In this document: in pieces, positions 3,895 through 53,568 of the stretch
How positions within the stretch are numbered: the first letter of the stretch is position 1
Layout of the letters: each line of letters begins with the position of its first letter
Virus record (IMG/VR): IMGVR_UViG_3300009784_000001
Coordinates: 295,944 to 359,943 of that record
Direction: 5' to 3' (one strand)
Origin: a virus
Lineage: Duplodnaviria > Heunggongvirae > Uroviricota > Caudoviricetes
Length of the DNA: 64,000 nucleotides
The notes under the pieces: model-generated
Told to the model about the DNA's origin: nothing
What the model saw: the letters and a program-made list of their open reading frames with translations, nothing else
Database searches by the model: none
Made by a program: the position numbers and the translations under genes

Positions 3895-4017
3895 TTATTT
3901 TTGTCTAATAATTACACGTCTGTTTCCACTTCTATTTACAAAAGGTCTTTGAATTGGTTTTTGTATTTGTGAAGTAGTTCTTTGTTGAACTTGTGGTTTG
4001 GATTTACAATTACACAT
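3895..4017 (-). CDS. small basic Cys-start peptide (40 aa, MCNCKSKPQVQQRTTSQIQKPIQRPFVNRSGNRRVIIRQK), not in the ORF track
   Basis: read manually; minus-strand TATTTAT at 4038-4044 upstream. Confidence 0.6.
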   Translation of the reverse strand: MCNCKSKPQVQQRTTSQIQKPIQRPFVNRSGNRRVIIRQK

Positions 4018-4216
4018 ACTTTCTACTATTTATTGAAATAAATATTGATTAATTATATTTTTTTAACATTTTATACTTTGAAATTAAAAAATAAATTTAT
4101 ATCTTTGCAGTGTAATTCAAATGAATTAGTGTTGAAGTGATAACTGAGTAAGAACATGATACTTCAAATAAATGTAGTGAGAGATGTACAGCTTTATTCA
4201 TTTTTTTAGATAAGGT

Positions 4217-4338
4217 TCCCCTGTAGCTCAGTTGGTTAGAGTACTTAAAATGAAGTTTTCTGGGTAGGAAATGTTCAGCAATATCAATCAAAATCGCTGT
4301 TAACGAAGGGGTCGGCAGTTCGAGTCTGTCCAGGGGTT
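4217..4338 (+). ncRNA. tRNA-Asn(GTT)-like RNA interrupted by a 48-nt insert (4246-4293)
   Basis: CCCCTG/CAGGGG acceptor stem, D arm, GGCAG-TTCGAGT-CTGTC T arm; removing the insert restores CTTCG-CTGTTAA-CGAAG. Confidence 0.75.
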
Positions 4339-4385
4339 CAAAGATTTCTTATTTAGATTAAAATAAGTGGCAGAGAAGAGGATTA

Positions 4386-4442
4386 AGAAAACATACAGCA
4401 TTTTTTATCAATTCAACCATAGGAAAGAAAAAGTGTTTTCTG
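4386..4442 (+). ncRNA. CAGCA-motif small RNA
   Basis: AGAAAACA-TACAGCA...TGTTTTCT-G; ends nearly identical to 10262..10315. Confidence 0.7.
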
Positions 4443-4668
4443 AAATAAAAAGATAGGGTTCACTGAGTTAAAGTGAATAGTTCAATACCAAGGTGAGGGA
4501 AGTGTTGAATGATAATATAAGTCCTTACATGTAATATAACTACATATCTAACATGTTTTATATATAGTCATGAATGTTATAAAACCTCTGGAACATTTTT
4601 TTTTATTAGGGTAGTTTTCATTGGATTAGACCCTGACTTTATGGTAAGTTATATTTACCTTAATTTAT

Positions 4669-4744
4669 TGGAACTTAGCTCAGCTTGATTTAGAGCATCT
4701 GTTTTACAAGCAGAGGGCCGTGGGTTTAAATCCCCCAGTTCCAA
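4669..4744 (+). tRNA. tRNA-Val(TAC)
   Basis: TGGAACT/AGTTCCA acceptor; TCTGT-TTTACAA-GCAGA. Confidence 0.85.
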
Positions 4745-4753
4745 CAATTAAAT

Positions 4754-4825
4754 CGGGGGATAGAGCAGTGGTAGCTCACCAGGCTCATAACCTGGAGGTC
4801 GAAGGTTCGATCCCTTCTCCCCCAA
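4754..4825 (+). tRNA. tRNA-Met(CAT), C1:A72 mismatch (initiator-like)
   Basis: CCAGG-CTCATAA-CCTGG; canonical T arm. Confidence 0.9.
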
Positions 4826-4829
4826 CAAT

Positions 4830-4958
4830 AGGAAAGGTACAGCAAATTGAATTAAAATTCTATTTACAATTTTACTATGAGGAAGAGAGCTTTCATCTAA
4901 AATAGGTGGAAAACAACTCTCAAAGAAATGAGTACTTCTCTAAAAACTCTCTTTCCTG
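4830..4958 (+). ncRNA. CAGCA-motif small RNA (long variant)
   Basis: AGGAAAG-GTACAGCAA...CTTTCCT-G with internal hairpin TTTCATCTA/TAGGTGGAAA. Confidence 0.6.
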
Positions 4959-5110
4959 ATATCATAAAATAAATCTTTACATCAAGGTGTACATAAATCT
5001 GTATAGTGGTACAAATGAGGGGCAAAGGAGAAGAATTTGCGTAGTCCGCTTGGAGTATCGGGTAGCTATGGTTGGGAAAGGTAAAGATTTATTTTTAATT
5101 TTTATATAAT

Positions 5111-5545
5111 ATGTTATATTCAATATTATTAACATTAGGATTATTAATTTTAGCTCATTTTATTGGAGATTGGAGTAAATTTGTTCCATTTCATCAAAAA
5201 GTAGTTAATGCAAAAGTTAATAAAACCAATACATCTGGAAATTGGATATTTTTACATTCAAGTATTGTATCTCTGTATAAAATATTTGCAATTTTAATTT
5301 CATCTTGGATTATTCCAATAGGAAATATGCCAGGTTTTTTGAATACAATATGGTTTTATATTATTCTTGTAGTAATATTTTTTGGAGAACTAATAACACA
5401 TTTTGTATTTGATATTTCTAAATGGTTTCTAAATAATAAATATAATCTGAATCCATCAAAAGATATTTATTGGACTGTTGTTGGTATTGACCAAATGCTA
5501 CATTATTTAGTAATGTTAGGAATGTTATATTTATTATATTGTTAA
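5111..5545 (+). CDS. DUF3307-like membrane protein
   Basis: AHFIGD, HFVFD, DQMLH motifs; hydrophobic helices. Confidence 0.7.
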   Translation: MLYSILLTLGLLILAHFIGDWSKFVPFHQKVVNAKVNKTNTSGNWIFLHSSIVSLYKIFAILISSWIIPIGNMPGFLNTIWFYIILVVIFFGELITHFVFDISKWFLNNKYNLNPSKDIYWTVVGIDQMLHYLVMLGMLYLLYC

Positions 5546-5553
5546 TTTTATAT

Positions 5554-5639
5554 GGCTATGTGGCGTAATTGGGAGCCGCAGGGGACTTAAAATCCCCTCT
5601 CCTGTAAAGGAGGTACAGGTTCAAGTCCTGTCATAGCTA
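5554..5639 (+). tRNA. tRNA-Leu(TAA)
   Basis: GGGGA-CTTAAAA-TCCCC; long variable arm. Confidence 0.9.
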
Positions 5640-5640
5640 C

Positions 5641-5761
5641 GATGAGAATTAGCTCAGTTGGTAGAGCAAAGGTATTATAAAAAGTTTCTTGAATAAGAAA
5701 TGTTCAGCAATATTTAAAAATGGGAACTTTATGTCAGCAGTTCGAGCCTGCTATTCTCATC
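5641..5761 (+). ncRNA. tRNA-like RNA whose anticodon loop is replaced by a ~55-nt CAGCA-motif insert
   Basis: GATGAGAAT/ATTCTCATC acceptor stem, canonical D arm, AGCAG-TTCGAGC-CTGCT T arm; insert shares GAAATGTTCAGCAATAT with 4217..4338. Confidence 0.75.
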
Positions 5762-5766
5762 CACAT

Positions 5767-5840
5767 TTTCTGGTAGTTCAATTGAATAGAACCTTCGGCT
5801 TCTACCCGAAAAGTTGGGAGTTTGAATCTCCCCCAGAAAG
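5767..5840 (+). tRNA. tRNA-Arg(TCT)
   Basis: TTCGG-CTTCTAC-CCGAA; TTTCTGG/CCAGAAA. Confidence 0.85.
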
Positions 5841-5857
5841 CAAAATAAATAGAAAAA

Positions 5858-6088
5858 ATGAGTAGTTGTATTAATAGATTAGATGATGAATTAGATGACC
5901 AGCAATGGAAAGAAATGGTATTAAAATGGAATGGTTTCAAATTTAAAGTAATTGATGAATTAAATGAAGTTAAAATTAAGAATAAATATGATACCAAAGA
6001 AGTTGAAGAATGGAAATTTTTATTTAATAATAAATCCAAAATATTAGCGAATAGAGAATTGATTAACTTATTAAAAAATTGGGAATGA
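5858..6088 (+). CDS. hypothetical protein
   Basis: 76 aa ORF. Confidence 0.55.
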   Translation: MSSCINRLDDELDDQQWKEMVLKWNGFKFKVIDELNEVKIKNKYDTKEVEEWKFLFNNKSKILANRELINLLKNWE

Positions 6089-6297
6089 ATATAAAGGTAA
6101 AAGAATTAATAAGTAAATTACAATTATTTAATCCAGAAGCCGAAGTTGATATTCTATTTAATAATCAACCTTATCCTTTGGAAATATATGGTTGGAATTG
6201 TGGTGGAGATAATAATTATTCTTCAACTGAATCTAAACAAAAAGCTATTTCAGTATCATTAGGTGGGATTGGGTTAAATGATAGTGAAAGAATGTAA

Positions 6298-6633
6298 ATG
6301 AAAAGTAAATTTGAATGTAGAGATAAAGTATCATATAATACATTTGAAGAAGCAAATAAAGTATTATCAGTATGGGATAAAAAGAAAAATAATAGTGAAC
6401 AATATGCTTATTCTTGTAAAGAATGTGGAAAGATACATATTACCAGTAGAAAGAAACATCTAAATAAAGTAAAACCAATTAAATATAAGGAAATTGGATT
6501 TACAAATGAGGATAGAAAAAAATGGGGTGGTAGTCGTTCAGTTAAAGAGCAAAAAGAACTTGTAGAAGTATTGTATAAAGGAAGAGAAAATAAAAGAGTT
6601 ACTTTTGGAGATTTATTAAAAAAAGAATATTAA
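6298..6633 (+). CDS. hypothetical protein with zinc finger (YSCKECGKIH)
   Basis: C..K..Y and YxCxxCGxxH pattern. Confidence 0.6.
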   Translation: MKSKFECRDKVSYNTFEEANKVLSVWDKKKNNSEQYAYSCKECGKIHITSRKKHLNKVKPIKYKEIGFTNEDRKKWGGSRSVKEQKELVEVLYKGRENKRVTFGDLLKKEY

Positions 6634-6705
6634 GTTTTTTTAATACAAAATATTTTGGTAACTCAAAAATAATTCTTATCTTTGTAGTGTTATTTGAAAT
6701 TATAA

Positions 6706-6893
6706 CGAGAGGTAGCTTAATGGCAGAGCGCAGTCGGAATGTAAAATTGCAATTTAATGTTCTTAAACAAGACTGAATGGTGTGCTGTGAAAGTTTGAAA
6801 AAAGTGAATACAAACTGAATGGGGTTGCAAACCTTGCAAGTTATGATGCTTGAAGTAGAATGAGTAATTGAGGTTCAATTCCCACCCTCTTGA
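6706..6893 (+). ncRNA. large tRNA-like RNA (~190 nt)
   Basis: CGAGAGG/CCTCTTG acceptor-like stem, D arm TAGCTTAATGGCAGAGC, GGTTCAATTCC T loop, long central insert; own promoter at 6654-6684. Confidence 0.6.
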
Positions 6894-6912
6894 CAAAAAA
6901 AATTAAATTGAT

Positions 6913-7179
6913 ATGAAAACATTAAGAGAAAGACAAATTGGTGAAAGATTTAAATATAGAAAAAATATAGTTGAAGTCAAATCTGTTATTTATAACAAAT
7001 GTTTTTATTGTCAATTTAGAAATCAATCTAAATGGATTGTAATTCTAAATGGTTGTTATCAAGAAAAAAATATGTTTGATTCTTGTTCAAAGAAACATAA
7101 TTGTTCAAGATATACCAGAAAGGATAAAAAAGATGTTTATTTCAAACTAGTCAAAAGACTTTATTTAGAAAGAAAATGA
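6913..7179 (+). CDS. hypothetical Cys-rich protein
   Basis: CFYCQF...CSRYTRKDKKDVYF. Confidence 0.6.
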   Translation: MKTLRERQIGERFKYRKNIVEVKSVIYNKCFYCQFRNQSKWIVILNGCYQEKNMFDSCSKKHNCSRYTRKDKKDVYFKLVKRLYLERK

Positions 7180-7739
7180 TAGGTTCAAATAACACTGATA
7201 AGTTTAAGATATTCCAAATAAGATGGGCTGAAAAGTTGGGTTATAACGATAATCCATATTTAATAAGGTGGACATTTATATTTTTTGGATATTCAATGAG
7301 AATACATCATTGGATTAAATCAGATGATAATAGATATTTTCATGATCATTCAAGTGATTTGTTAAGCATTGTATTAAAAGGAAAATATACAAATGTTAAA
7401 CCTCTTATGTGGAAGAAAAATTTACCTCCAACTCATTTATTTGAAGTTGAATTACCACCAGAATCTTCAATAAAGAGAAAGTTTATTTCAAATACTGTAG
7501 AGTATCCAGTTGAAGGTATTTTTAATTCTTGGAAAAATTTCTTCAATATGAAGAAATCAATATGGTTTTCAAAAGCAACTGAACAACATTACTTGAGTAT
7601 TCCAAAAAAAGGTGCATGGACATTGTTATTTGAAGGAAAAGCATATCATAAGTGGGGATTTTATGTAAATCAACATAAATGGAGACCATTAAGATATTTC
7701 TCAAAGTTTGGTATAATACAAACAGAAAATTATCAATAA
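7176..7739 (+). CDS. hypothetical protein, cupin-like HDH motif
   Basis: IHHW..SDD.RYFHDH...WGF. Confidence 0.55.
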   Translation: MIGSNNTDKFKIFQIRWAEKLGYNDNPYLIRWTFIFFGYSMRIHHWIKSDDNRYFHDHSSDLLSIVLKGKYTNVKPLMWKKNLPPTHLFEVELPPESSIKRKFISNTVEYPVEGIFNSWKNFFNMKKSIWFSKATEQHYLSIPKKGAWTLLFEGKAYHKWGFYVNQHKWRPLRYFSKFGIIQTENYQ

Positions 7740-8081
7740 TTTTTAACATAAAAAATTTGGTCATTAAAAATAAAATTTGTATCTTTGCATTATAAATTAT
7801 GTTTTATTGATAGATTCAGGTACTGAATATTGGCACTGTAAAATATAGTTTAGAGTAATAGGCAGTAAGTCATATATCTATGAGTAGAGGGTAACGTTTG
7901 AAATTAGTATATACTCCTTTGAAAAAGTGCAATGACCTATTATTTTTTATTAAATATTGATAATTTTTTAAATAATAGTATATTTATATTAAAAAACTTA
8001 TAAATGGGTATTGAACCATAAATAAAAAGTAAAAACAAAAAAAGCAATGGGAACAGATGCTTAAAAAAAGAAAAAAAAGAA

Positions 8082-8213
8082 ATGAGAGAATTTAGTAAAC
8101 ATATTAATAATTTTGTTGAGGTTAGTTATAAACCCAATAGTAATTGTAATTCAAATGAAAAACCATTTGAAGATGATAATAATTTGCTAAAAGGATTTTG
8201 TGTATATATGTAA
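8082..8213 (+). CDS. leader peptide 1 (43 aa, MREFSKHINNFVEVSYKPNSNCNSNEKPFEDDNNLLKGFCVYM)
   Basis: manual translation; 14 of codons 17-34 are K/P/N/E/D; precedes a terminator and the Glu/Asn/Asp/Pro/Pro/Lys tRNAs. Confidence 0.8.
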   Translation: MREFSKHINNFVEVSYKPNSNCNSNEKPFEDDNNLLKGFCVYM

Positions 8214-8234
8214 CATTTACTCAAATATACGTTC

Positions 8235-8284
8235 CACAAACCCTGATAGCAAAATTAAAAAAGTTATCAGGGTTTTGTGTTTTT
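8235..8284 (+). terminator. attenuator terminator 1
   Basis: CACAAACCCTGATAGC / GTTATCAGGGTTTTGTG plus T run, ending 7 nt before tRNA-Glu. Confidence 0.85.
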
Positions 8285-8291
8285 AATATAT

Positions 8292-8362
8292 GGCGCATTA
8301 GTTTAGTGGTAGAACAGGCGGTTTTCAGCCGAAGGAGAGGGTTTCGATTACCCTATGCGCTA
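8292..8362 (+). tRNA. tRNA-Glu(TTC)
   Basis: CGG-TTTTCAG-CCG (short anticodon stem); GGCGCAT/ATGCGCT. Confidence 0.8.
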
Positions 8363-8369
8363 CAAATAT

Positions 8370-8442
8370 GTACCTGTGGCAGAGTGGTTTATGCACTTGA
8401 CTGTTAATCAAGACTACGAAGGTTCGATCCCTTCTGGGTACG
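8370..8442 (+). tRNA. tRNA-Asn(GTT)
   Basis: CTTGA-CTGTTAA-TCAAG. Confidence 0.9.
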
Positions 8443-8450
8443 CAAAAATA

Positions 8451-8522
8451 GAGAGTATAGCATAATCTGGTAAGTGTGCCTTCCAAGTGGGAAGGAGATG
8501 TGGTTCAAATCCAATACTTTCT
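8451..8522 (+). ncRNA. atypical tRNA-like gene, anticodon undetermined
   Basis: cloverleaf with CCTTC-CAAGTGG-GAAGG (no U33); weak T stem. Confidence 0.6.
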
Positions 8523-8530
8523 GCAAAAAT

Positions 8531-8602
8531 AGTCTATTGGTCCAGCGGTTAGGATGCCAGATTGTCAATCTGGTGGCGAGGGTTCAACTCCCTTATAGAC
8601 TG
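8531..8602 (+). tRNA. tRNA-Asp(GTC)
   Basis: CCAGA-TTGTCAA-TCTGG; G73. Confidence 0.9.
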
Positions 8603-8608
8603 CTATTT

Positions 8609-8681
8609 CTGGGTGTAATTCAGTAGGAAGAATGCTTGGTTTGGGACCAAGATGTCGGGAGTTCGAGCCTCTCTACTCAGA
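8609..8681 (+). tRNA. tRNA-Pro(TGG)
   Basis: CTTGG-TTTGGGA-CCAAG; C1:G72. Confidence 0.9.
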
Positions 8682-8688
8682 CAAAATT

Positions 8689-8764
8689 CGGATAGTAGGG
8701 AAGCTCGGTCGTTCCCGCCTGCCCTGGACGCAGGAGATCATAGGTTCAAATCCTGTTTATCCGA
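8689..8764 (+). tRNA. tRNA-Pro(TGG), variant loop (C33, A37)
   Basis: CCTGC-CCTGGAC-GCAGG; C1:G72. Confidence 0.8.
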
Positions 8765-8901
8765 CTATAATTAAAAAAGTTAAAGGGACTTTGAAAAGAA
8801 TTATAAGTGAAAATAATATGAGTAATAAATTAAAAATAAAACGAAAATGTAGCTGACCTCACAGTTAATATGGGCTGTGAGGTTGGGAATAAGGATATTA
8901 C

Positions 8902-8974
8902 TCCCTCATAGCTCAATGGTTTAGAGCTTCTGTCTTTTAAACAGAAGAACCAGGTCCGATTCCTGGTGGGGGAA
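8902..8974 (+). tRNA. tRNA-Lys(TTT)
   Basis: TCTGT-CTTTTAA-ACAGA. Confidence 0.9.
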
Positions 8975-9210
8975 CTATAAAAATAAAAAAAAATGTTTTG
9001 GGATAACAAAAATAAATGTAAGAAGTATTGTATAGGTTGTAAATTTGCAAGTGAATTTAATAATAATTTTTATTGTGTTAATGAACTTGGTGAATATATT
9101 GTTGCAACAAAAAATCAAGTTTTAGTATCATTGGGATATACAGCTTTACATATATGTAGAGGTTTATTAATAAAGAAAAATTGCCCATTTTTTGAAAAAG
9201 ATAGAAAATT

Positions 9211-9459
9211 ATGAAAGAAATTAGTATTAAAGATGTAATTGATAATAGTAAAAGAGCTAAATTAACTCATGCTATTGCAGGGAGATTGTATTATAGGGTA
9301 GATGATATAGAAAGAAATACTACATATCAATTTTGTGTAGATATGAATGATAAAGAAGATGTTGGTTCAACTACATTTATTGTAGATGAAAAAGCTATTC
9401 TTTTAATGAGATATATTAGAAAATCAAAAGATTCTGGTGATTTAATTCAAATTAAATAG
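9211..9459 (+). CDS. hypothetical protein
   Basis: 82 aa ORF. Confidence 0.65.
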   Translation: MKEISIKDVIDNSKRAKLTHAIAGRLYYRVDDIERNTTYQFCVDMNDKEDVGSTTFIVDEKAILLMRYIRKSKDSGDLIQIK

Positions 9460-9786
9460 CATAATGAGTTTTATTTATGAAATAAAAAATTTAGAGAAAA
9501 TAAAAGAAGAAGGTAGTATTTACATTCAATGCCCATGTTGCCAAGAAAGTTTTGATTATTATCTAGATAAATATGAATTAGATATTTTGAATAAAGAAGA
9601 GGACATTTATTGTAAGTGTATAGAATGTGGTAATTCTTTCTATCTTTCTTTGTAGATTATCAAAAAGTGATAAAAATCATTTTATGTATTGTAAAAGATG
9701 AAAAGAATAAATTTGGTATATTCAATAATAATTTGTACTTTTGCGATATAATTATCTATTTATAGATACAACAAAAAAGTATAAAA

Positions 9787-10122
9787 ATGAAAAAAAGAAT
9801 TATTATTTTATTATCATTATTTTTCATAATGAACATAAGTCAAGCAGCTATTTATAAAACAAAAAGTGAAAGTGATGTAATTGAGAATAGTACAGGTTTA
9901 TTTGGAGAAAAAAAAGTAGAGAAAATTGAAAATACAGAAGATAATTATGGTGGATTATTCAGAGCATCAGATCCAGGTGGAAGACCAGGGAATGGTGATG
10001 GAATTGGTCAGCAAGCACCATTAGGTGATGGATTAAAAATATTACTTATACTTTGTTTTTTCTTTCTTCTTTATGAATTTTCTACAAACAAAAAAATTAA
10101 CATAAAAAATTTGGATAATTAA
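9787..10122 (+). CDS. secreted protein with signal peptide and C-terminal PLGDG-TM-basic tail (PID-CTERM-like)
   Basis: MKKRIIILLSLFF..SQA signal; APLGDGLKILLILCFFFLLY tail. Confidence 0.55.
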   Translation: MKKRIIILLSLFFIMNISQAAIYKTKSESDVIENSTGLFGEKKVEKIENTEDNYGGLFRASDPGGRPGNGDGIGQQAPLGDGLKILLILCFFFLLYEFSTNKKINIKNLDN

Positions 10123-10178
10123 AAAATAAATTGTAATTTTGTAGAGTAATAAGATATTTATAAGATATAAAAATAGAT

Positions 10179-10256
10179 CGTGGTGTGGAGGAGTCTGGCT
10201 TTCCTCATCTGGCTCATAACCAGAATGTCACATGGGTTCAAATCCCATCACCGCAA
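10179..10256 (+). tRNA. tRNA-Met(CAT), C1:A72 mismatch (initiator-like)
   Basis: TCTGG-CTCATAA-CCAGA. Confidence 0.9.
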
Positions 10257-10261
10257 CAAAT

Positions 10262-10315
10262 AGAAAACATACAGCATTTTTTCAATTTTCAATGGGAGAA
10301 AAAAAGTGTTTTCTG
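10262..10315 (+). ncRNA. CAGCA-motif small RNA
   Basis: AGAAAACA-TACAGCA...TTTTC-AATGGGA-GAAAA...TGTTTTCT-G. Confidence 0.7.
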
Positions 10316-10324
10316 AAAAAAATA

Positions 10325-10406
10325 AGGAAAGATACAGCAATGTTAAATGGTTAAAAGAAAATTCTGTAAAAATTTTTTGAAAAGGTTCAAATCCTATTCT
10401 TTCCTG
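10325..10406 (+). ncRNA. CAGCA-motif RNA enclosing a degenerate tRNA-Tyr-like body
   Basis: AGGAAAGA-TACAGCAA..AATGGTT..AAATT-CTGTAAA-AATTT..AGG-TTCAAAT-CCT..TCTTTCCT-G. Confidence 0.7.
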
Positions 10407-10442
10407 TAAATTTGAAAAGTTAAATTAAAAAAAATAGAAAAA

Positions 10443-10553
10443 ATGAAACAAATTAGTAGTACATATTGTCTTGGAAGTTCATCAGCGATTAGTTTTGCTG
10501 GTACAACATCCTTTTGTACTTATCATTTTTATGATAATTTTGTTTCAAGTTAA
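10443..10553 (+). CDS. leader peptide 2 (36 aa, MKQISSTYCLGSSSAISFAGTTSFCTYHFYDNFVSS)
   Basis: 25 of codons 4-30 are S/Y/F/L/C/T/A/I/H, the amino acids of the downstream tRNAs. Confidence 0.85.
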   Translation: MKQISSTYCLGSSSAISFAGTTSFCTYHFYDNFVSS

Positions 10554-10582
10554 AAAAAGAATTACCTTAACCTGGCAAGGAT

Positions 10583-10627
10583 AAACCTGAAACAAATCTA
10601 TAAAAAAGAAAAGTTTCAGGTTTTTTT
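10583..10627 (+). terminator. attenuator terminator 2
   Basis: AAACCTGAAAC / GTTTCAGGTTT plus T run, just before tRNA-Ser. Confidence 0.85.
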
Positions 10628-10636
10628 AATTTATAT

Positions 10637-10721
10637 GGAAAGTAAACCTATAAGGTGTAGGAACCGCCTGCTAAGCGAGTTGTACAATTAAATGTATGTG
10701 AATCGTGTTCACTGCTCTCCG
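10637..10721 (+). tRNA. tRNA-Ser(GCT)
   Basis: CGC-CTGCTAA-GCG; long variable arm; G73. Confidence 0.8.
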
Positions 10722-10762
10722 CAAAAGTTCTTTGAAATTGTTGGTTAATTATAAATTATTAT

Positions 10763-10845
10763 GGATTAGTTGGGTAGTGGCAATCCCAAGACACTGTAAC
10801 TGTCTCGCCTTCGGGCTTTCGCTGGTTCGAGTCCAGCCTAATCCA
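10763..10845 (+). tRNA. tRNA-Tyr(GTA)
   Basis: AGACA-CTGTAAC-TGTCT; variable arm GCC-TTCG-GGC. Confidence 0.9.
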
Positions 10846-10886
10846 CATAAAAATATTTTTCTTAATAACTATACTTTTTTAGTTCG

Positions 10887-11858
10887 ATGCGATATTTATA
10901 TATAAATGTAAATATTATGATAAAGGAACGAGAAGAATTAATTATTAAAATAATAAAAGAGAGTAATAGTATTTCAGAGGTTTGTAAAAAGTTAAATATA
11001 TCTGTTACTAATGGTAATTATATAACAATAAAAAAAATAATAAAAAACAATAATTTAGATATATCTCATTTTAAAAGAGTTTCACAAAATTCTAATAAAA
11101 AGCGATATACGTTACAAGAAATTATGGTTGAAAATTCATCATACACCAATGTAAATAAATTAAAGAAAAGATTAATTAAAGAAGGGATTAAGGAAAATAA
11201 ATGTGAAATATGTGGAATAAGTAAATGGAATGGAGAACAAATTTCTTTACAATTGCATCATAAAAATGGTATCACAAGTGATAATAGAATAGAAAATTTA
11301 CAAGTACTTTGTCCCAATTGTCATTCTCAAACACATAACTATGGTGGGAAAAATATAGATAATAAAATAAGAGAAGATAGATTTTGCAGAATATGTGAGA
11401 AAAAGTTAAACGATACACAAAAAAAGTATTGTTCAATCAATTGCTATAATAAAAGTATTGATGATAATATTCCAACTAAAAACAAAATCTTATCTTATAT
11501 AAAAAATTATACAACACTTGTAGAATTATGTAAAAAAGAAAAAATTGATAGAGGGACATTTAGAAATTGGTGTAATAAAAGACAATGTATAGATGATGTA
11601 AATTTTTTGTTGAAAAAAAATTTTGAAATAAAAATTTTAAATATTGAAGTTAAGAATGATTTATATGAAAAAAGATGTGAATTAATAAATAAATTTAAAA
11701 AATTTGGGTCATTCTTACAAGTAGGTAAATATTATGGAGTATCCGATAATATGATAAGAAAAAGATGTAAAAAAATTGGTTTACCTGTTCATACAAAAGA
11801 AATGATAAAATTAATAAATTCGGAAGAATGTCAGAGTGCTTTATTGTACAACTCTTGA
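10887..11858 (+). CDS. HNH homing endonuclease (start may be 10917); 3' end overlaps tRNA-Ser
   Basis: CEICG...LQLHHKNG..DNRIENLQVLCPNCHSQT. Confidence 0.85.
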   Translation: MRYLYINVNIMIKEREELIIKIIKESNSISEVCKKLNISVTNGNYITIKKIIKNNNLDISHFKRVSQNSNKKRYTLQEIMVENSSYTNVNKLKKRLIKEGIKENKCEICGISKWNGEQISLQLHHKNGITSDNRIENLQVLCPNCHSQTHNYGGKNIDNKIREDRFCRICEKKLNDTQKKYCSINCYNKSIDDNIPTKNKILSYIKNYTTLVELCKKEKIDRGTFRNWCNKRQCIDDVNFLLKKNFEIKILNIEVKNDLYEKRCELINKFKKFGSFLQVGKYYGVSDNMIRKRCKKIGLPVHTKEMIKLINSEECQSALLYNS

Positions 11859-11906
11859 AAAGTTGTGAACTTTCGAGTTCCGTAGGTTGGAATCCTACTT
11901 CTTCCG
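11822..11906 (+). tRNA. tRNA-Ser(TGA)
   Basis: CAACT-CTTGAAA-AGTTG; long variable arm. Confidence 0.85.
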
Positions 11907-11917
11907 CAAGATAATAA

Positions 11918-11990
11918 GGGATAGTAACATAGAAGTTTATGTGCTGGTCTGAAAAACCAGAAATGCTTGAGGCGGTATCAGCCTATCCCA
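11918..11990 (+). tRNA. tRNA-Phe(GAA)
   Basis: CTGGT-CTGAAAA-ACCAG; atypical T loop. Confidence 0.8.
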
Positions 11991-12000
11991 CAAATTAAAT

Positions 12001-12086
12001 GCTTCAATGGGGGAATTGCTAGACCCGCTTGATTTAGGCTCAAGTTTCTGGGAACAGAAGTGTAGGTTGGATTCCTACTTGAAGTA
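12001..12086 (+). tRNA. tRNA-Leu(TAG)
   Basis: CTTGA-TTTAGGC-TCAAG; long variable arm. Confidence 0.85.
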
Positions 12087-12092
12087 CAATAT

Positions 12093-12164
12093 GTTCAGTT
12101 GCCAGAGTGATAATGGGGTAGACTGCAAATCTATTTTTCGTTGGTTTGAATCCAACACTGAATT
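12093..12164 (+). tRNA. tRNA-Cys(GCA)
   Basis: GTAGA-CTGCAAA-TCTAT; U73. Confidence 0.85.
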
Positions 12165-12176
12165 CAAAAAATAAAT

Positions 12177-12247
12177 GCTGTGTTAGTATAAGAGTATTAC
12201 ATTGGCTTTGTAACCCAAAAATGGGGATGCGATTTCCTCACACAGCT
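12177..12247 (+). tRNA. tRNA-Thr(TGT)
   Basis: GCTGTGT/ACACAGC; loop TTTGTAA. Confidence 0.8.
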
Positions 12248-12256
12248 CTAAATTAA

Positions 12257-12328
12257 GGGCTTATCATATAATAGCTATTATGCCACCCCTGCAAGGTGGT
12301 TATTGGAGTGCAATTCTCCATAGGTCCA
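12257..12328 (+). tRNA. tRNA-Ala(TGC)
   Basis: CCACC-CCTGCAA-GGTGG; G3:U70. Confidence 0.85.
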
Positions 12329-12407
12329 CTTATTTAGCATTTATTAACTTGAATAATTTTGATATTAGATAATATTTTCTTATCTTTGTATCATTAAAAT
12401 AAATGGT

Positions 12408-13022
12408 ATGAAAAAGATAGAATTAGTTTATAATAATTTAGATATTAATAATTTACCAGGTGAAATATGGGTAGATGCTTATGATTTTGATGGTTATTAT
12501 GAAGTATCCAATATGGGGAGGATAAAAACTTGTGAAAGAGAAGTCAGTAATGGAGTTGGGACAAGAATAGTAATTAGTAAAATTAGGAAACAGGTTTTAG
12601 GTAAAGATGATAGATTAACTTGTCCCTTTACTATAAATAATGAAAGTATATCTATAAATGTTTCAAGGTTAATCTTTCAATCTTTTAACCCCACTAAGAT
12701 TTTAGATAATTTAGTGGTTTCACATAGAAATAGATGTAAATGTGATAATAGATTGAATAATTTAAAAGTGGAAACATTACAAAACAATCATTTTGATAAT
12801 GTTCATAAGTATAATTATGGCTTAAAAGAACATTTGTTAAAACTGAATAAAATTAAACATGAAAAATTTGTCAATACAATAAAAAGCAAAGTTTGTAATA
12901 AATGTGGAATAGAAAAAGATATAATAGAATTTGTATATAAAAGAGAAGGAAAAAGAGATGAAAATAGAAATATATGTAAAATGTGTAGAAATAAACGTGA
13001 AAGAAATAGAATTAAAAAATGA
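12408..13022 (+). CDS. NUMOD4/HNH homing endonuclease
   Basis: EIW...GYYEVSNMGRIK (NUMOD4); VSHRNRCKCDNRLNNL. Confidence 0.8.
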   Translation: MKKIELVYNNLDINNLPGEIWVDAYDFDGYYEVSNMGRIKTCEREVSNGVGTRIVISKIRKQVLGKDDRLTCPFTINNESISINVSRLIFQSFNPTKILDNLVVSHRNRCKCDNRLNNLKVETLQNNHFDNVHKYNYGLKEHLLKLNKIKHEKFVNTIKSKVCNKCGIEKDIIEFVYKREGKRDENRNICKMCRNKRERNRIKK

Positions 13023-13441
13023 GTTATAAAGATTTTTTTCAAAAACCAGAGTTTGATTTGGATGAAGTAGAAGAAAAAAGAGTAAATGCTTTGAAACCAG
13101 ATGAAAATGGTGATTTAATGGAAAATGGTGATTATATTTTTCAGGATAGAGCAATTCATAATCAACAAGGTAATACAATTCAGCGTTCTTTTACAACTGT
13201 AAAGGGAGTTAGAGTAATGGAAGATACTTACATACCCTGGTCATGCTTTCAACCAATGAGGATGACTTTTGTGGTAGATTTGACATTGCCTGATGATACA
13301 TTACCAACAACTGAAACAAGTTGGATGCAAAATTGGTATGAGCCTGAAGGATTTGCTCATCCTGCATTTGTAAATTTTGAAGATGTTGTTGAATTTATAA
13401 TTAAATGGAGAAAAAGTAACCCTAAAGTGGTTAATAATTAA
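13019..13441 (+). CDS. hypothetical protein
   Basis: 140 aa ORF. Confidence 0.65.
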   Translation: MSYKDFFQKPEFDLDEVEEKRVNALKPDENGDLMENGDYIFQDRAIHNQQGNTIQRSFTTVKGVRVMEDTYIPWSCFQPMRMTFVVDLTLPDDTLPTTETSWMQNWYEPEGFAHPAFVNFEDVVEFIIKWRKSNPKVVNN

Positions 13442-13449
13442 ATAAAAAT

Positions 13450-13522
13450 GTTCAGTTCTTCTAATGGTTTAGGAAGCAAGACTGATATTCTTGTAATATA
13501 AGTTCGATTCTTATACTGAACA
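13450..13522 (+). tRNA. tRNA-Ile(GAT)
   Basis: CAAGA-CTGATAT-TCTTG. Confidence 0.85.
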
Positions 13523-13524
13523 CT

Positions 13525-13602
13525 GTGTGGGTAGCTAATATTGGTTAAGGCACTAGATTGTGGCTCTAGGTTTTTATGGGGGTTCGATTCCCCTCTCACA
13601 CC
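13525..13602 (+). tRNA. tRNA-His(GTG)
   Basis: CTAGA-TTGTGGC-TCTAG; C73. Confidence 0.85.
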
Positions 13603-16786: not shown

Positions 16787-16807
16787 TGTGATATTTATAT
16801 AAATAAA

Positions 16808-16900
16808 ATGAAAAAAAATACAAACATATTATTAGTTGGGCAACAAGGTTGGCAACAATTTGGACAAGGCTGTGGCAATGTTCCTGATAATGGTATGTAA
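16808..16900 (+). CDS. leader peptide 3 (30 aa, MKKNTNILLVGQQGWQQFGQGCGNVPDNGM)
   Basis: 11 of codons 11-23 are G/Q/W; the downstream tRNAs are Gln, Gly, Trp. Confidence 0.85.
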   Translation: MKKNTNILLVGQQGWQQFGQGCGNVPDNGM

Positions 16901-16934
16901 GTATATAAGGATAACCTTCGCAAATGGTGGCTCT

Positions 16935-16971
16935 GGCTTACATTACTATTAAAAGTATGTAAGCCTTTTTT
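16935..16971 (+). terminator. attenuator terminator 3
   Basis: GGCTTACAT / ATGTAAGCC plus TTTTTT, 7 nt before tRNA-Gln. Confidence 0.85.
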
Positions 16972-16978
16972 AATTTAT

Positions 16979-17050
16979 AGATTAGTGGTATAATGGTTAT
17001 TACACATCGCTTTGAACGATGGAATTCCTGTTCAATTCAGGACTAATCTA
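16979..17050 (+). tRNA. tRNA-Gln(TTG)
   Basis: CATCG-CTTTGAA-CGATG. Confidence 0.85.
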
Positions 17051-17164
17051 CATCATATCAATGGCAATAGATATGATAATAGAATAGAAAATTTACAAAT
17101 ACTTTGTCCTAATTGTCATTCTCAAACTGATAGTTATGCAGGAAAAAGTAGTAGAAAAAAATAA
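17051..17164 (+). pseudogene. HNH endonuclease remnant
   Basis: HHINGNRYDNRIENLQILCPNCHSQTDSYAGK with no start codon; close to the core of 10887..11858. Confidence 0.8.
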
Positions 17165-17167
17165 AAT

Positions 17168-17239
17168 GCGTCATTCGTATAGTGCTTATTATGCGACTCT
17201 TCCAAAGTCAGGACATCGGTTGGATTCCGATATGGCGCA
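17168..17239 (+). tRNA. tRNA-Gly(TCC)
   Basis: GACT-CTTCCAA-AGTC; GCG 5' end. Confidence 0.85.
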
Positions 17240-17249
17240 CAAAATATAT

Positions 17250-17320
17250 ACGTGTTTGGTGTAATGGTAGCATAACTCCCTCCAAATGAGTTGGTTAGGG
17301 TTCGAGTCCTTAAATACGTG
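17250..17320 (+). tRNA. tRNA-Trp(CCA)
   Basis: loop CTCCAAA; G73. Confidence 0.85.
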
Positions 17321-17449
17321 CTTACTTTGAAATGTTAAATAATCTAAAATTTTTATATTATCTAATTTATTAACATTTTCTATTTGTATAATAGAAAAAA
17401 TTATCTTATCTTTGTTCCATAATTAATAACAATTTAAATTTTTAATAAT

Positions 17450-52713: not shown

Positions 52714-53568
52714 ATGATTAGACCATTAAATACCAAAAATCAAGCATATACTCCAAAAAATGAATTATTAAATTTATATTTTAAAGATATAAATGATTTC
52801 AAAGTGTTAAGCGCAAATGAAGAATTTCATCTTTTTGAAGCAATTAAAAATGGGGATGAGAACGCTAAAAGAAAAATAATTGAATGTAATCAGAAATTTG
52901 TAGTCTCAGTAGCAAAGAAATTTTCAACTTCTGATACTTTACTAGATTTAATTAATGAAGGGAATATTGGATTAATAGAAGCAATTGATGAATTTGATAA
53001 TTACAGAGGAATAAAGTTTATTAGTTTTGCTGTACATTATATTCATAGAGAAATATATAATTATCTAAAAAATAATAGTTTAGTTCGACAAACTAATTTA
53101 GGGAAGACATATAATATTCTTAATAAAGTGAAAAGTGCTTTTTTCGTTCAGAATGGAAGAATGCCATCTGAACAAGAAGTGATTGATATAATAAAGAAAG
53201 AATATGATATTGATATAATTGATAAATCAGATGTATATGATTTGAAAGTTTCATCAATTAATGATTTTGAAGAAGATAATCCAAATTGTAATGAAAATGA
53301 ATTTAATAAATATTATTTTTATGAAAATAGTTCCAATATAAAATATGAACGAGAAGAGAATAGAAACAATATTAATGAATTAATAGATGTTTTAACTCCT
53401 GAAGAATTTTATATTCTTAAATTATATTATGGTATTGATTGCTGGCGAGAGTTTTCTTTAGATGAAATTTCTAATGTAACTGGTTATACTTCTGAAAGAA
53501 TTAGGCAACTTAAAGATGATGCTATTGATAAAATGAAAATGTGTAATAAAATAAAAAAAATTGTATAA
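52714..53568 (+). CDS. RNA polymerase sigma-70 factor (RpoD/RpoS-like)
   Basis: FVVSVAK, DLINEGNIGLIEA, KFISFA, SERIRQ. Confidence 0.9.
   Translation: MIRPLNTKNQAYTPKNELLNLYFKDINDFKVLSANEEFHLFEAIKNGDENAKRKIIECNQKFVVSVAKKFSTSDTLLDLINEGNIGLIEAIDEFDNYRGIKFISFAVHYIHREIYNYLKNNSLVRQTNLGKTYNILNKVKSAFFVQNGRMPSEQEVIDIIKKEYDIDIIDKSDVYDLKVSSINDFEEDNPNCNENEFNKYYFYENSSNIKYEREENRNNINELIDVLTPEEFYILKLYYGIDCWREFSLDEISNVTGYTSERIRQLKDDAIDKMKMCNKIKKIV

Follow-up and report, generated by a model that had tools for sequence, protein, structure and literature searches.

A probable leader-peptide attenuator and a candidate tRNA-Lys folding lock in a phage tRNA gene cluster

A 360-kb termite-gut phage has a block of tRNA genes for Glu, Asn, Asp, Pro, Pro and Lys that is most probably controlled by a multivalent leader-peptide transcription attenuator, in which an ORF rich in Lys, Pro, Asn, Glu and Asp (K/P/N/E/D) codons precedes an intrinsic terminator and a competing antiterminator. 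The proposal is computational and no RNA data support it; what was observed are the sequence, the predicted folds, their conservation and their co-variation. Within the same block, a Lys-rich mini-ORF and a hairpin precede tRNA-Lys, and we lean towards interpreting them as a ribosome-read folding lock on the maturation of this tRNA, a computational reading in which processing itself is inferred.

Results

Genome setting

The stretch analysed, termed the window, is the final 64 kb of a phage record of 359,943 bases (26% GC), and most tRNA genes are located at 4.2-17.3 kb of the window. The phage contains T4-like capsid and terminase genes, its capsid matching those of cultured phages at only ~40% over half its length. 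It is present in metagenomes of the termite gut, from which it may originate. Motifs of the form TAnnTTTG, the Bacteroidota promoter type, cluster before genes genome-wide and point, by inference, to a Bacteroidota host. Two candidate promoter motifs precede the leader (Table 1), and a motif similar to ATATTTAT is found 33 nt upstream of the orthologous leader of a relative described below. An ORF at 52714-53568, which by eye has the look of the sigma-70 family, is a putative reader of the ATATTTAT motif. The stretch at 7790-7955, which follows the promoter motif at 7780, is structured and non-coding, with a first hairpin at a z-score of -2.9, a second that is not significant, and a T run at the end. 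Tiny ORFs at 8004-8021, 8047-8064 and 8057-8095 (K/R-rich) precede or overlap the leader start and were not seen in the relative; the last, which is out of frame, was taken as chance.

Comparison of metagenome contigs across unit 1, which comprises the leader, terminator and tRNA block described here, revealed no variant strain, a gene near unit 1 used as query retrieved no relatives, and blastn against GenBank phages gave tRNA-Asp as the sole match.

The tRNA blocks

Unit 1 had been described in an earlier note on this DNA as a Glu, Asn, Asp, Pro, Pro, Lys block; all six genes are present, and a seventh, Thr-like gene was missed, which is probably no normal decoder (Table 1). The regulated genes downstream of the leader are tRNAs and not genes for amino-acid biosynthesis, transport or synthetases. 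In both this phage and its relative an odd tRNA-like gene that lacks U33 and reads Thr follows tRNA-Asn (8450-8524 with AGT and L141:5299-5375 with TGT, respectively), and these genes are possibly decoys or structural RNAs.

Two sister units, each with its own antiterminator and switch point, are located further downstream, the switch of unit 2 being predicted after codon 30. Default ARAGORN missed tRNA-Ser(GCU) at 10636-10722 and tRNA-Phe(GAA) at 11918-11990, and the presence of the latter in block 2 accounts for the Phe codons of leader 2; the output of relaxed ARAGORN with introns was judged to be noise. Two HNH endonuclease genes (10887-11858 and 12408-13022) lie within block 2 and would fall under the unit 2 attenuator unless separately promoted. 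A convincing leader-terminator arrangement, seen at the other three blocks, is missing for the Val, Met, Leu(UAA) and Arg(UCU) tRNA genes at 4669-5841, and an ORF at 4570 was rejected as their leader, having a poor start context and a weak hairpin. In two other termite runs, positions 16804-16979 are covered by a depth-3 contig that differs at 16 letters; the 13 differences that were listed lie in the spacer (16908-16933) and the terminator (16947), and none of these in the leader ORF. A repeated small RNA-like element, comprising a stem and ACAGCA/TTCAGCA, occurs at 4217-4338, 4385-4442, 4830-4890, 5643-5759 and 10262-10400, either free-standing or inserted in two tRNA-like genes, with similar copies in the tRNA arrays of many relatives.

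Table 1. Predicted features of unit 1 and its sister units, in window coordinates.
Feature	Position	Strand	Support or remarks
Bacteroidota-type -7 promoter element TATCTTTG, candidate upstream promoter	7780-7787	+	Motif clusters 26-46 nt before genes genome-wide; in vivo use inferred
ATATTTAT motif, candidate phage promoter for the leader transcript	7980-7987	+	Clusters 20-45 nt before genes; promoter role inferred
Leader ORF, 43 codons; K/P/N/E/D-rich control core at codons 17-34 (8130-8183)	8082-8213	+	Start context, composition
Antiterminator: 8183-89:8247-53, 8192-94:8242-44, 8197-8202:8235-40, plus a weak inner helix	8183-8253	+	Minimum free energy fold of nascent RNA to 8262
Intrinsic terminator: arms 8235-8250 and 8263-8279, 12-nt loop, U-rich tract 8273-8284	8235-8284	+	-21.1 kcal/mol, z-score -6.5
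tRNA-Glu(UUC), two anticodon-stem mismatches	8292-8363	+	
tRNA-Asn(GUU)	8370-8443	+	
Degenerate tRNA-like gene, reads Thr-AGU, A33 replaces U33	8450-8524	+	Rfam 32.9 bits
tRNA-Asp(GUC)	8531-8603	+	
Two tRNA-Pro(UGG) genes: 8609-8682 and 8689-8765	8609-8765	+	
Lys mini-ORF, 12 codons, four AAA codons, conserved IKRK motif (8836-8847); stop within the 5′ arm of the hairpin	8818-8856	+	
14-bp hairpin without U-tract (8853-66:8873-86)	8853-8891	+	z-score -3.6
tRNA-Lys(UUU), U31:A39	8902-8975	+	
Sister unit 2: S/T/Y/C/A/F/I/L/H leader (10443-10553), terminator, ten tRNAs (Ser, Tyr, Ser, Phe, Leu, Cys, Thr, Ala, Ile, His)	10443-13602	+	80% cognate residues
Sister unit 3: G/Q/W leader (16808-16900), terminator, tRNA-Gln, Gly, Trp	16808-17321	+	Composition P = 1e-5; 0/300 shuffles

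The leader ORF

The start context of the leader ATG scores above 99.9% of random ATGs, and the encoded peptide has no match in NCBIfam. The count of 14 K/P/N/E/D residues among the 18 of codons 17-34, reported earlier for the ORF at 8082-8213, is correct in both number and coordinates. The accompanying caveat was that the composition signal is weakest at this attenuator, K/N/E/D being common in the genome. Over the whole peptide the signal is indeed weak, with 20 such residues of 42 against a background of 34% (P = 0.048), and 11% of five-residue sets score as well over its length. A best-of-18 window of 14 is reached by 0.2% of 43-mers from the phage proteome under the same best-window rule, and by two of 1244 short ORFs, one of which is the leader itself. 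About half of the codons before the predicted switch are non-cognate, and the leader has no Thr codon despite the Thr-like gene in the block. The leader end AGGATTTTGTGT (8192) and the terminator arm AGGGTTTTGTGT (8269) do differ by a single base, as had been claimed, and the leader carries an 11/12 copy of the terminator 3′ arm.

Terminator and antiterminator structures

The terminator ends 7 nt before tRNA-Glu and was passed over by a simple terminator scan because of its 12-nt loop. Until its 3′ arm has been transcribed, the predicted optimum is a three-helix antiterminator that ties up the 5′ arm, and this segment has an energy of -16.1 kcal/mol with a z-score of -3.7, unmatched in 200 shuffles. 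The pairing segments previously assigned by eye (TTTGCTA at 8183-8189 with TAGCAAA at 8247-8253, and TTTGTG at 8197-8202 with CACAAA at 8235-8240) are all found at those positions, and of the nested antiterminator proposed from them the outer helices are predicted; the inner TATAT/ATATA pairs are not in the register predicted for the antiterminator, and they are compatible with the terminated state as well. The third helix, 8192-8194:8242-8244, had been missed and adds ~-5.5 kcal/mol. Sequestration of the terminator 5′ arm amounts to -9.1 kcal/mol, a value matched by only 2 of 300 approximate dinucleotide shuffles and by 1 of 300 synonymous recodings; the earlier note likewise rested the case on the structural signal.

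When a ribosome was masked onto the RNA, with an assumed footprint of the A site plus 9 nt, the antiterminator remained intact to codon 31 and collapsed at codons 32-35, where the K/P/N/E/D core ends. The predicted barrier for refolding from antiterminator to terminator is ~12 kcal/mol as long as the ribosome has not passed codon 31, and ~4 kcal/mol once it has. As equilibrium favours the terminator by 6-11 kcal/mol, read-through requires kinetic trapping of the antiterminator. No anti-antiterminator, such as the protector or pause hairpin of trp and ilvBNC, was predicted, only a weak 8165-75:8214-26 helix being found, and the antiterminator is also predicted to form in RNA that is not translated (P 0.77). 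With no protector hairpin dominant, untranslated RNA or any early stall is thus predicted to read through. An Rfam search of 4000-12500 up to E = 5 revealed no T-box, and searches of Rfam and NCBIfam gave no match for the attenuator and no sequence homology to known attenuators.

Comparison with other phages

The closest relative, G025, whose capsid is 74% identical, carries a unit 1 orthologue (L141:4844-4978) and was found via the Lys motif described below, not via its leader. A KPF-DD pattern is common to the two leaders, which are otherwise poorly conserved as peptides. In the orthologous terminator 13 of 13 compared pairs are kept, with four double (compensatory) and two single changes. 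Pairing between the leader and the terminator arm is predicted at -9.1 and -9.6 kcal/mol for the native combinations and at -5.6 and -0.8 kcal/mol for the swapped ones. The orthologous leader core contains G, R and Q and its block contains tRNA-Gly, Arg and Gln, while in the window phage these three tRNAs lie outside block 1 and the core lacks G, R and Q. The orthologous pair of unit 2 displays a parallel shift of leader and block for M, V and W, the arm-swap test being non-discriminating in that case. A pattern search with KPF-DD plus terminator returned only the known orthologue and one false match, and a metagenome scan gave no further unit 1 orthologue, leaving a total of one.

Across 26 units comprising an ORF, a terminator and tRNA genes, drawn from all fetched loci and chosen blind to composition, the summed match between leader and block reached a z of 65.3 against 0.4 ± 7.2 for permuted pairings, and was attained in none of 200,000 permutations; units of related phages are not independent. 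The true leader-block pairing ranks 1/6 in the window phage and 2/5040 and 1/24 in two others. Around 20 of the 26 units, spread over 8 records, look genuine. Cognate codons are concentrated ahead of the predicted switch point in most units, and units of unrelated sequence share the same geometry. No such units were seen in about two thirds of the phage records examined. In G027-G029 (L144-L146, L148-L151) two to seven leader-terminator units were observed in each, some of them mono-specific (Gln-only; Ser/Arg), and the capsid of G027 has no close match to that of the window phage. The attenuator reading put forward in the earlier note is supported by the shuffle and recoding controls, the position of the switch at the end of the core, the compensatory changes in the orthologue, the gain of G, R and Q and the permutation test.

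The Lys mini-ORF and its hairpin

The mini-ORF and hairpin at 8818-8891, between tRNA-Pro and tRNA-Lys, had gone unnoticed in the earlier note. The strand at 8871-8882, on the 3′ side of the hairpin and hidden by it, is complementary to the 5′ end of tRNA-Lys and would form with it a 12-bp duplex of ~-20 kcal/mol, ranking 2 among 307 tRNA leaders. For a ribosome masked at the first IKRK lysine, the predicted P of the acceptor stem is 0.85, and at the second Lys the ensemble is mixed (0.56); at the mini-ORF stop the acceptor stem falls to 0.00 and the anti-tRNA helix reaches 0.96. The segment 8853-8891 has no Rfam match, theta and HDV-like ribozymes having been considered, and its simple-hairpin fold was obtained without a pseudoknot search.

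Similar loci were sought with a pattern comprising only the IKRK codons and tRNA-Lys landmarks, so that the motif is built into the search. Eleven of the 12 viral matches are tRNA-Lys genes, and every one of these 11 has an in-frame ATG a short way upstream and a stop codon that adjoins a hairpin, while an in-frame ATG is found in none of 22 chromosomal tRNA-Lys matches. Neither the ATG nor the abutting stop was part of the pattern, and this difference argues against an interpretation of the element as a signal for processing, such as a site for RNase III, or as the tRNA 5′ end copied in inverted orientation, with the mini-ORF incidental; so does the conservation of the layout among loci whose hairpin sequences vary widely. 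That interpretation remains possible, if doubtful, as the hairpin 5′ arm resembles the 5′ end of tRNA-Lys, AAA codons are common in DNA of 26% GC, and the flip between folds, which is clean at 8 of the 11 loci, is weak at two (L130 and L140) and absent at one (L137). Complementarity within a locus exceeds that of permuted pairs (p = 0.01 over 9 lineages), and four further metagenomic Lys loci agree with the folding lock.

In the T5 tRNA-Lys a change to A39 is reported to abolish cleavage by AriB (PMC12409363). The tRNA-Lys(UUU) of the window likewise carries A39; the link to anti-phage defence is inferred.

Discussion

Proposed mechanism and alternatives

In the mechanism proposed here, RNA polymerase would transcribe the leader with a ribosome following. 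When charged tRNAs are plentiful, the ribosome would pass codon 31 and cover 8183-8202, the terminator would form and transcription would stop before tRNA-Glu. If instead the ribosome lags in the K/P/N/E/D core, on a tRNA that is uncharged, cleaved or exhausted, 8183-8202 could pair with 8235-8253 before the terminator 3′ arm exists, and the polymerase, with the antiterminator held as a kinetic trap, would read into the tRNA genes. The new tRNAs would relieve the stall, resulting in negative feedback on tRNA supply. Transcription, translation, their coupling, stalling, termination, processing and the trigger are all inferred.

The same switch could also be read as a general sensor of translation that reacts whenever ribosomes slow down or are missing (host shut-off, antibiotics, uncoupling) and is merely tuned by its codons. 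Consistent with this, the antiterminator is favoured equally by untranslated RNA and by a stall at any of codons 1-31, no anti-antiterminator dominates and only 53% of the pre-switch codons are cognate; we consider such a sensor unlikely, since the codons of a leader follow the tRNAs encoded downstream of it, both inside one phage and across phages, and change along with the block in two orthologous pairs, for which a generic sensor would have no need. A further alternative is a plain terminator that ends a small-protein transcript; the tRNAs would then be expressed through leakage past it, with the help of a phage antitermination factor or from a different promoter, and the complementarity would be a relic of duplication. 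The terminator is indeed very stable, the copy of its 3′ arm in the leader would fit such a relic, K/N/E/D/P make up 34% of the proteome and a weak promoter-like TAATTTTG is found at 8108. The 7-nt gap before tRNA-Glu, the co-variation of the competing helix with its own terminator in the orthologue, the recurrence of the geometry in units of unrelated sequence and the poor conservation of the peptide beyond KPF-DD all oppose this account, which we regard as very improbable. The codon-specific attenuator remains the preferred reading.

A second tier probably acts on tRNA-Lys alone. A ribosome at the stop of the IKRK mini-ORF would open the hairpin, and the freed strand would pair with the tRNA 5′ end and keep the cloverleaf from forming; with the ribosome stalled at AAA, tRNA-Lys would stay free to fold and mature. 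Whether the two elements act together as a two-tier, ribosome-read feedback, the attenuator gating transcription and the mini-ORF gating folding and processing of pre-tRNA-Lys, such that nuclease-resistant tRNA-Lys is made only when host tRNA-Lys is cut or drained, we regard as evenly balanced.

Why phages carry tRNAs is an old question, the proposed answers being codon compensation and the replacement of host-destroyed tRNAs. A built-in sensor implies that phage tRNAs are made on demand, and the codons of each leader predict which shortage switches on which tRNA genes. The Lys lock, which would constitute a ribosome-controlled tRNA folding switch, singles out tRNA-Lys(UUU), the tRNA that PrrC and PARIS attack. 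Both the attenuator and the lock are short and easily put into reporters.

Relation to known systems

Work on T5 tRNA-Lys and PARIS indicates that phage tRNAs counter tRNA-cleaving defences (PMC11464382; PMC10264068), and term searches of these two papers found no wording on leaders or attenuation. A search of titles and abstracts, with most subscription journals outside its scope, likewise returned no published description of leader-peptide or ribosome-gated control of tRNA genes.

The attenuator is most readily compared with those of amino-acid operons (E. coli ilvGMEDA and thr; trpL, hisL and pheL; C. glutamicum ilvBNC, for which a multivalent attenuator model has been described, PMC11857589), with which it shares a short ORF of control codons, an overlapping antiterminator, an intrinsic terminator and a predicted progression from stall to read-through. 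In contrast with these, its output comprises tRNA genes rather than biosynthetic enzymes, and the reach of attenuation would thereby widen from metabolic enzymes to the machinery of decoding itself. The phage leader samples five amino acids through scattered codons and not through runs, it lacks a predicted anti-antiterminator, and several leaders divide the tRNA set among them; unlike in trp, the untranslated leader RNA is predicted to read through. T-box riboswitches similarly let tRNA status set the choice between terminator and antiterminator, whereas in the phage sensing would proceed via the translating ribosome and cover several tRNAs at once.

In translational attenuators and stop-overlapping uORF switches of the cat-86, ermC and SecM types, the position of a ribosome on a mini-ORF decides which of two helices forms. 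The Lys lock shares this ribosome-position choice of helix, but its target would be the acceptor and D stem of a tRNA instead of a ribosome-binding site, and its output would be tRNA maturation.
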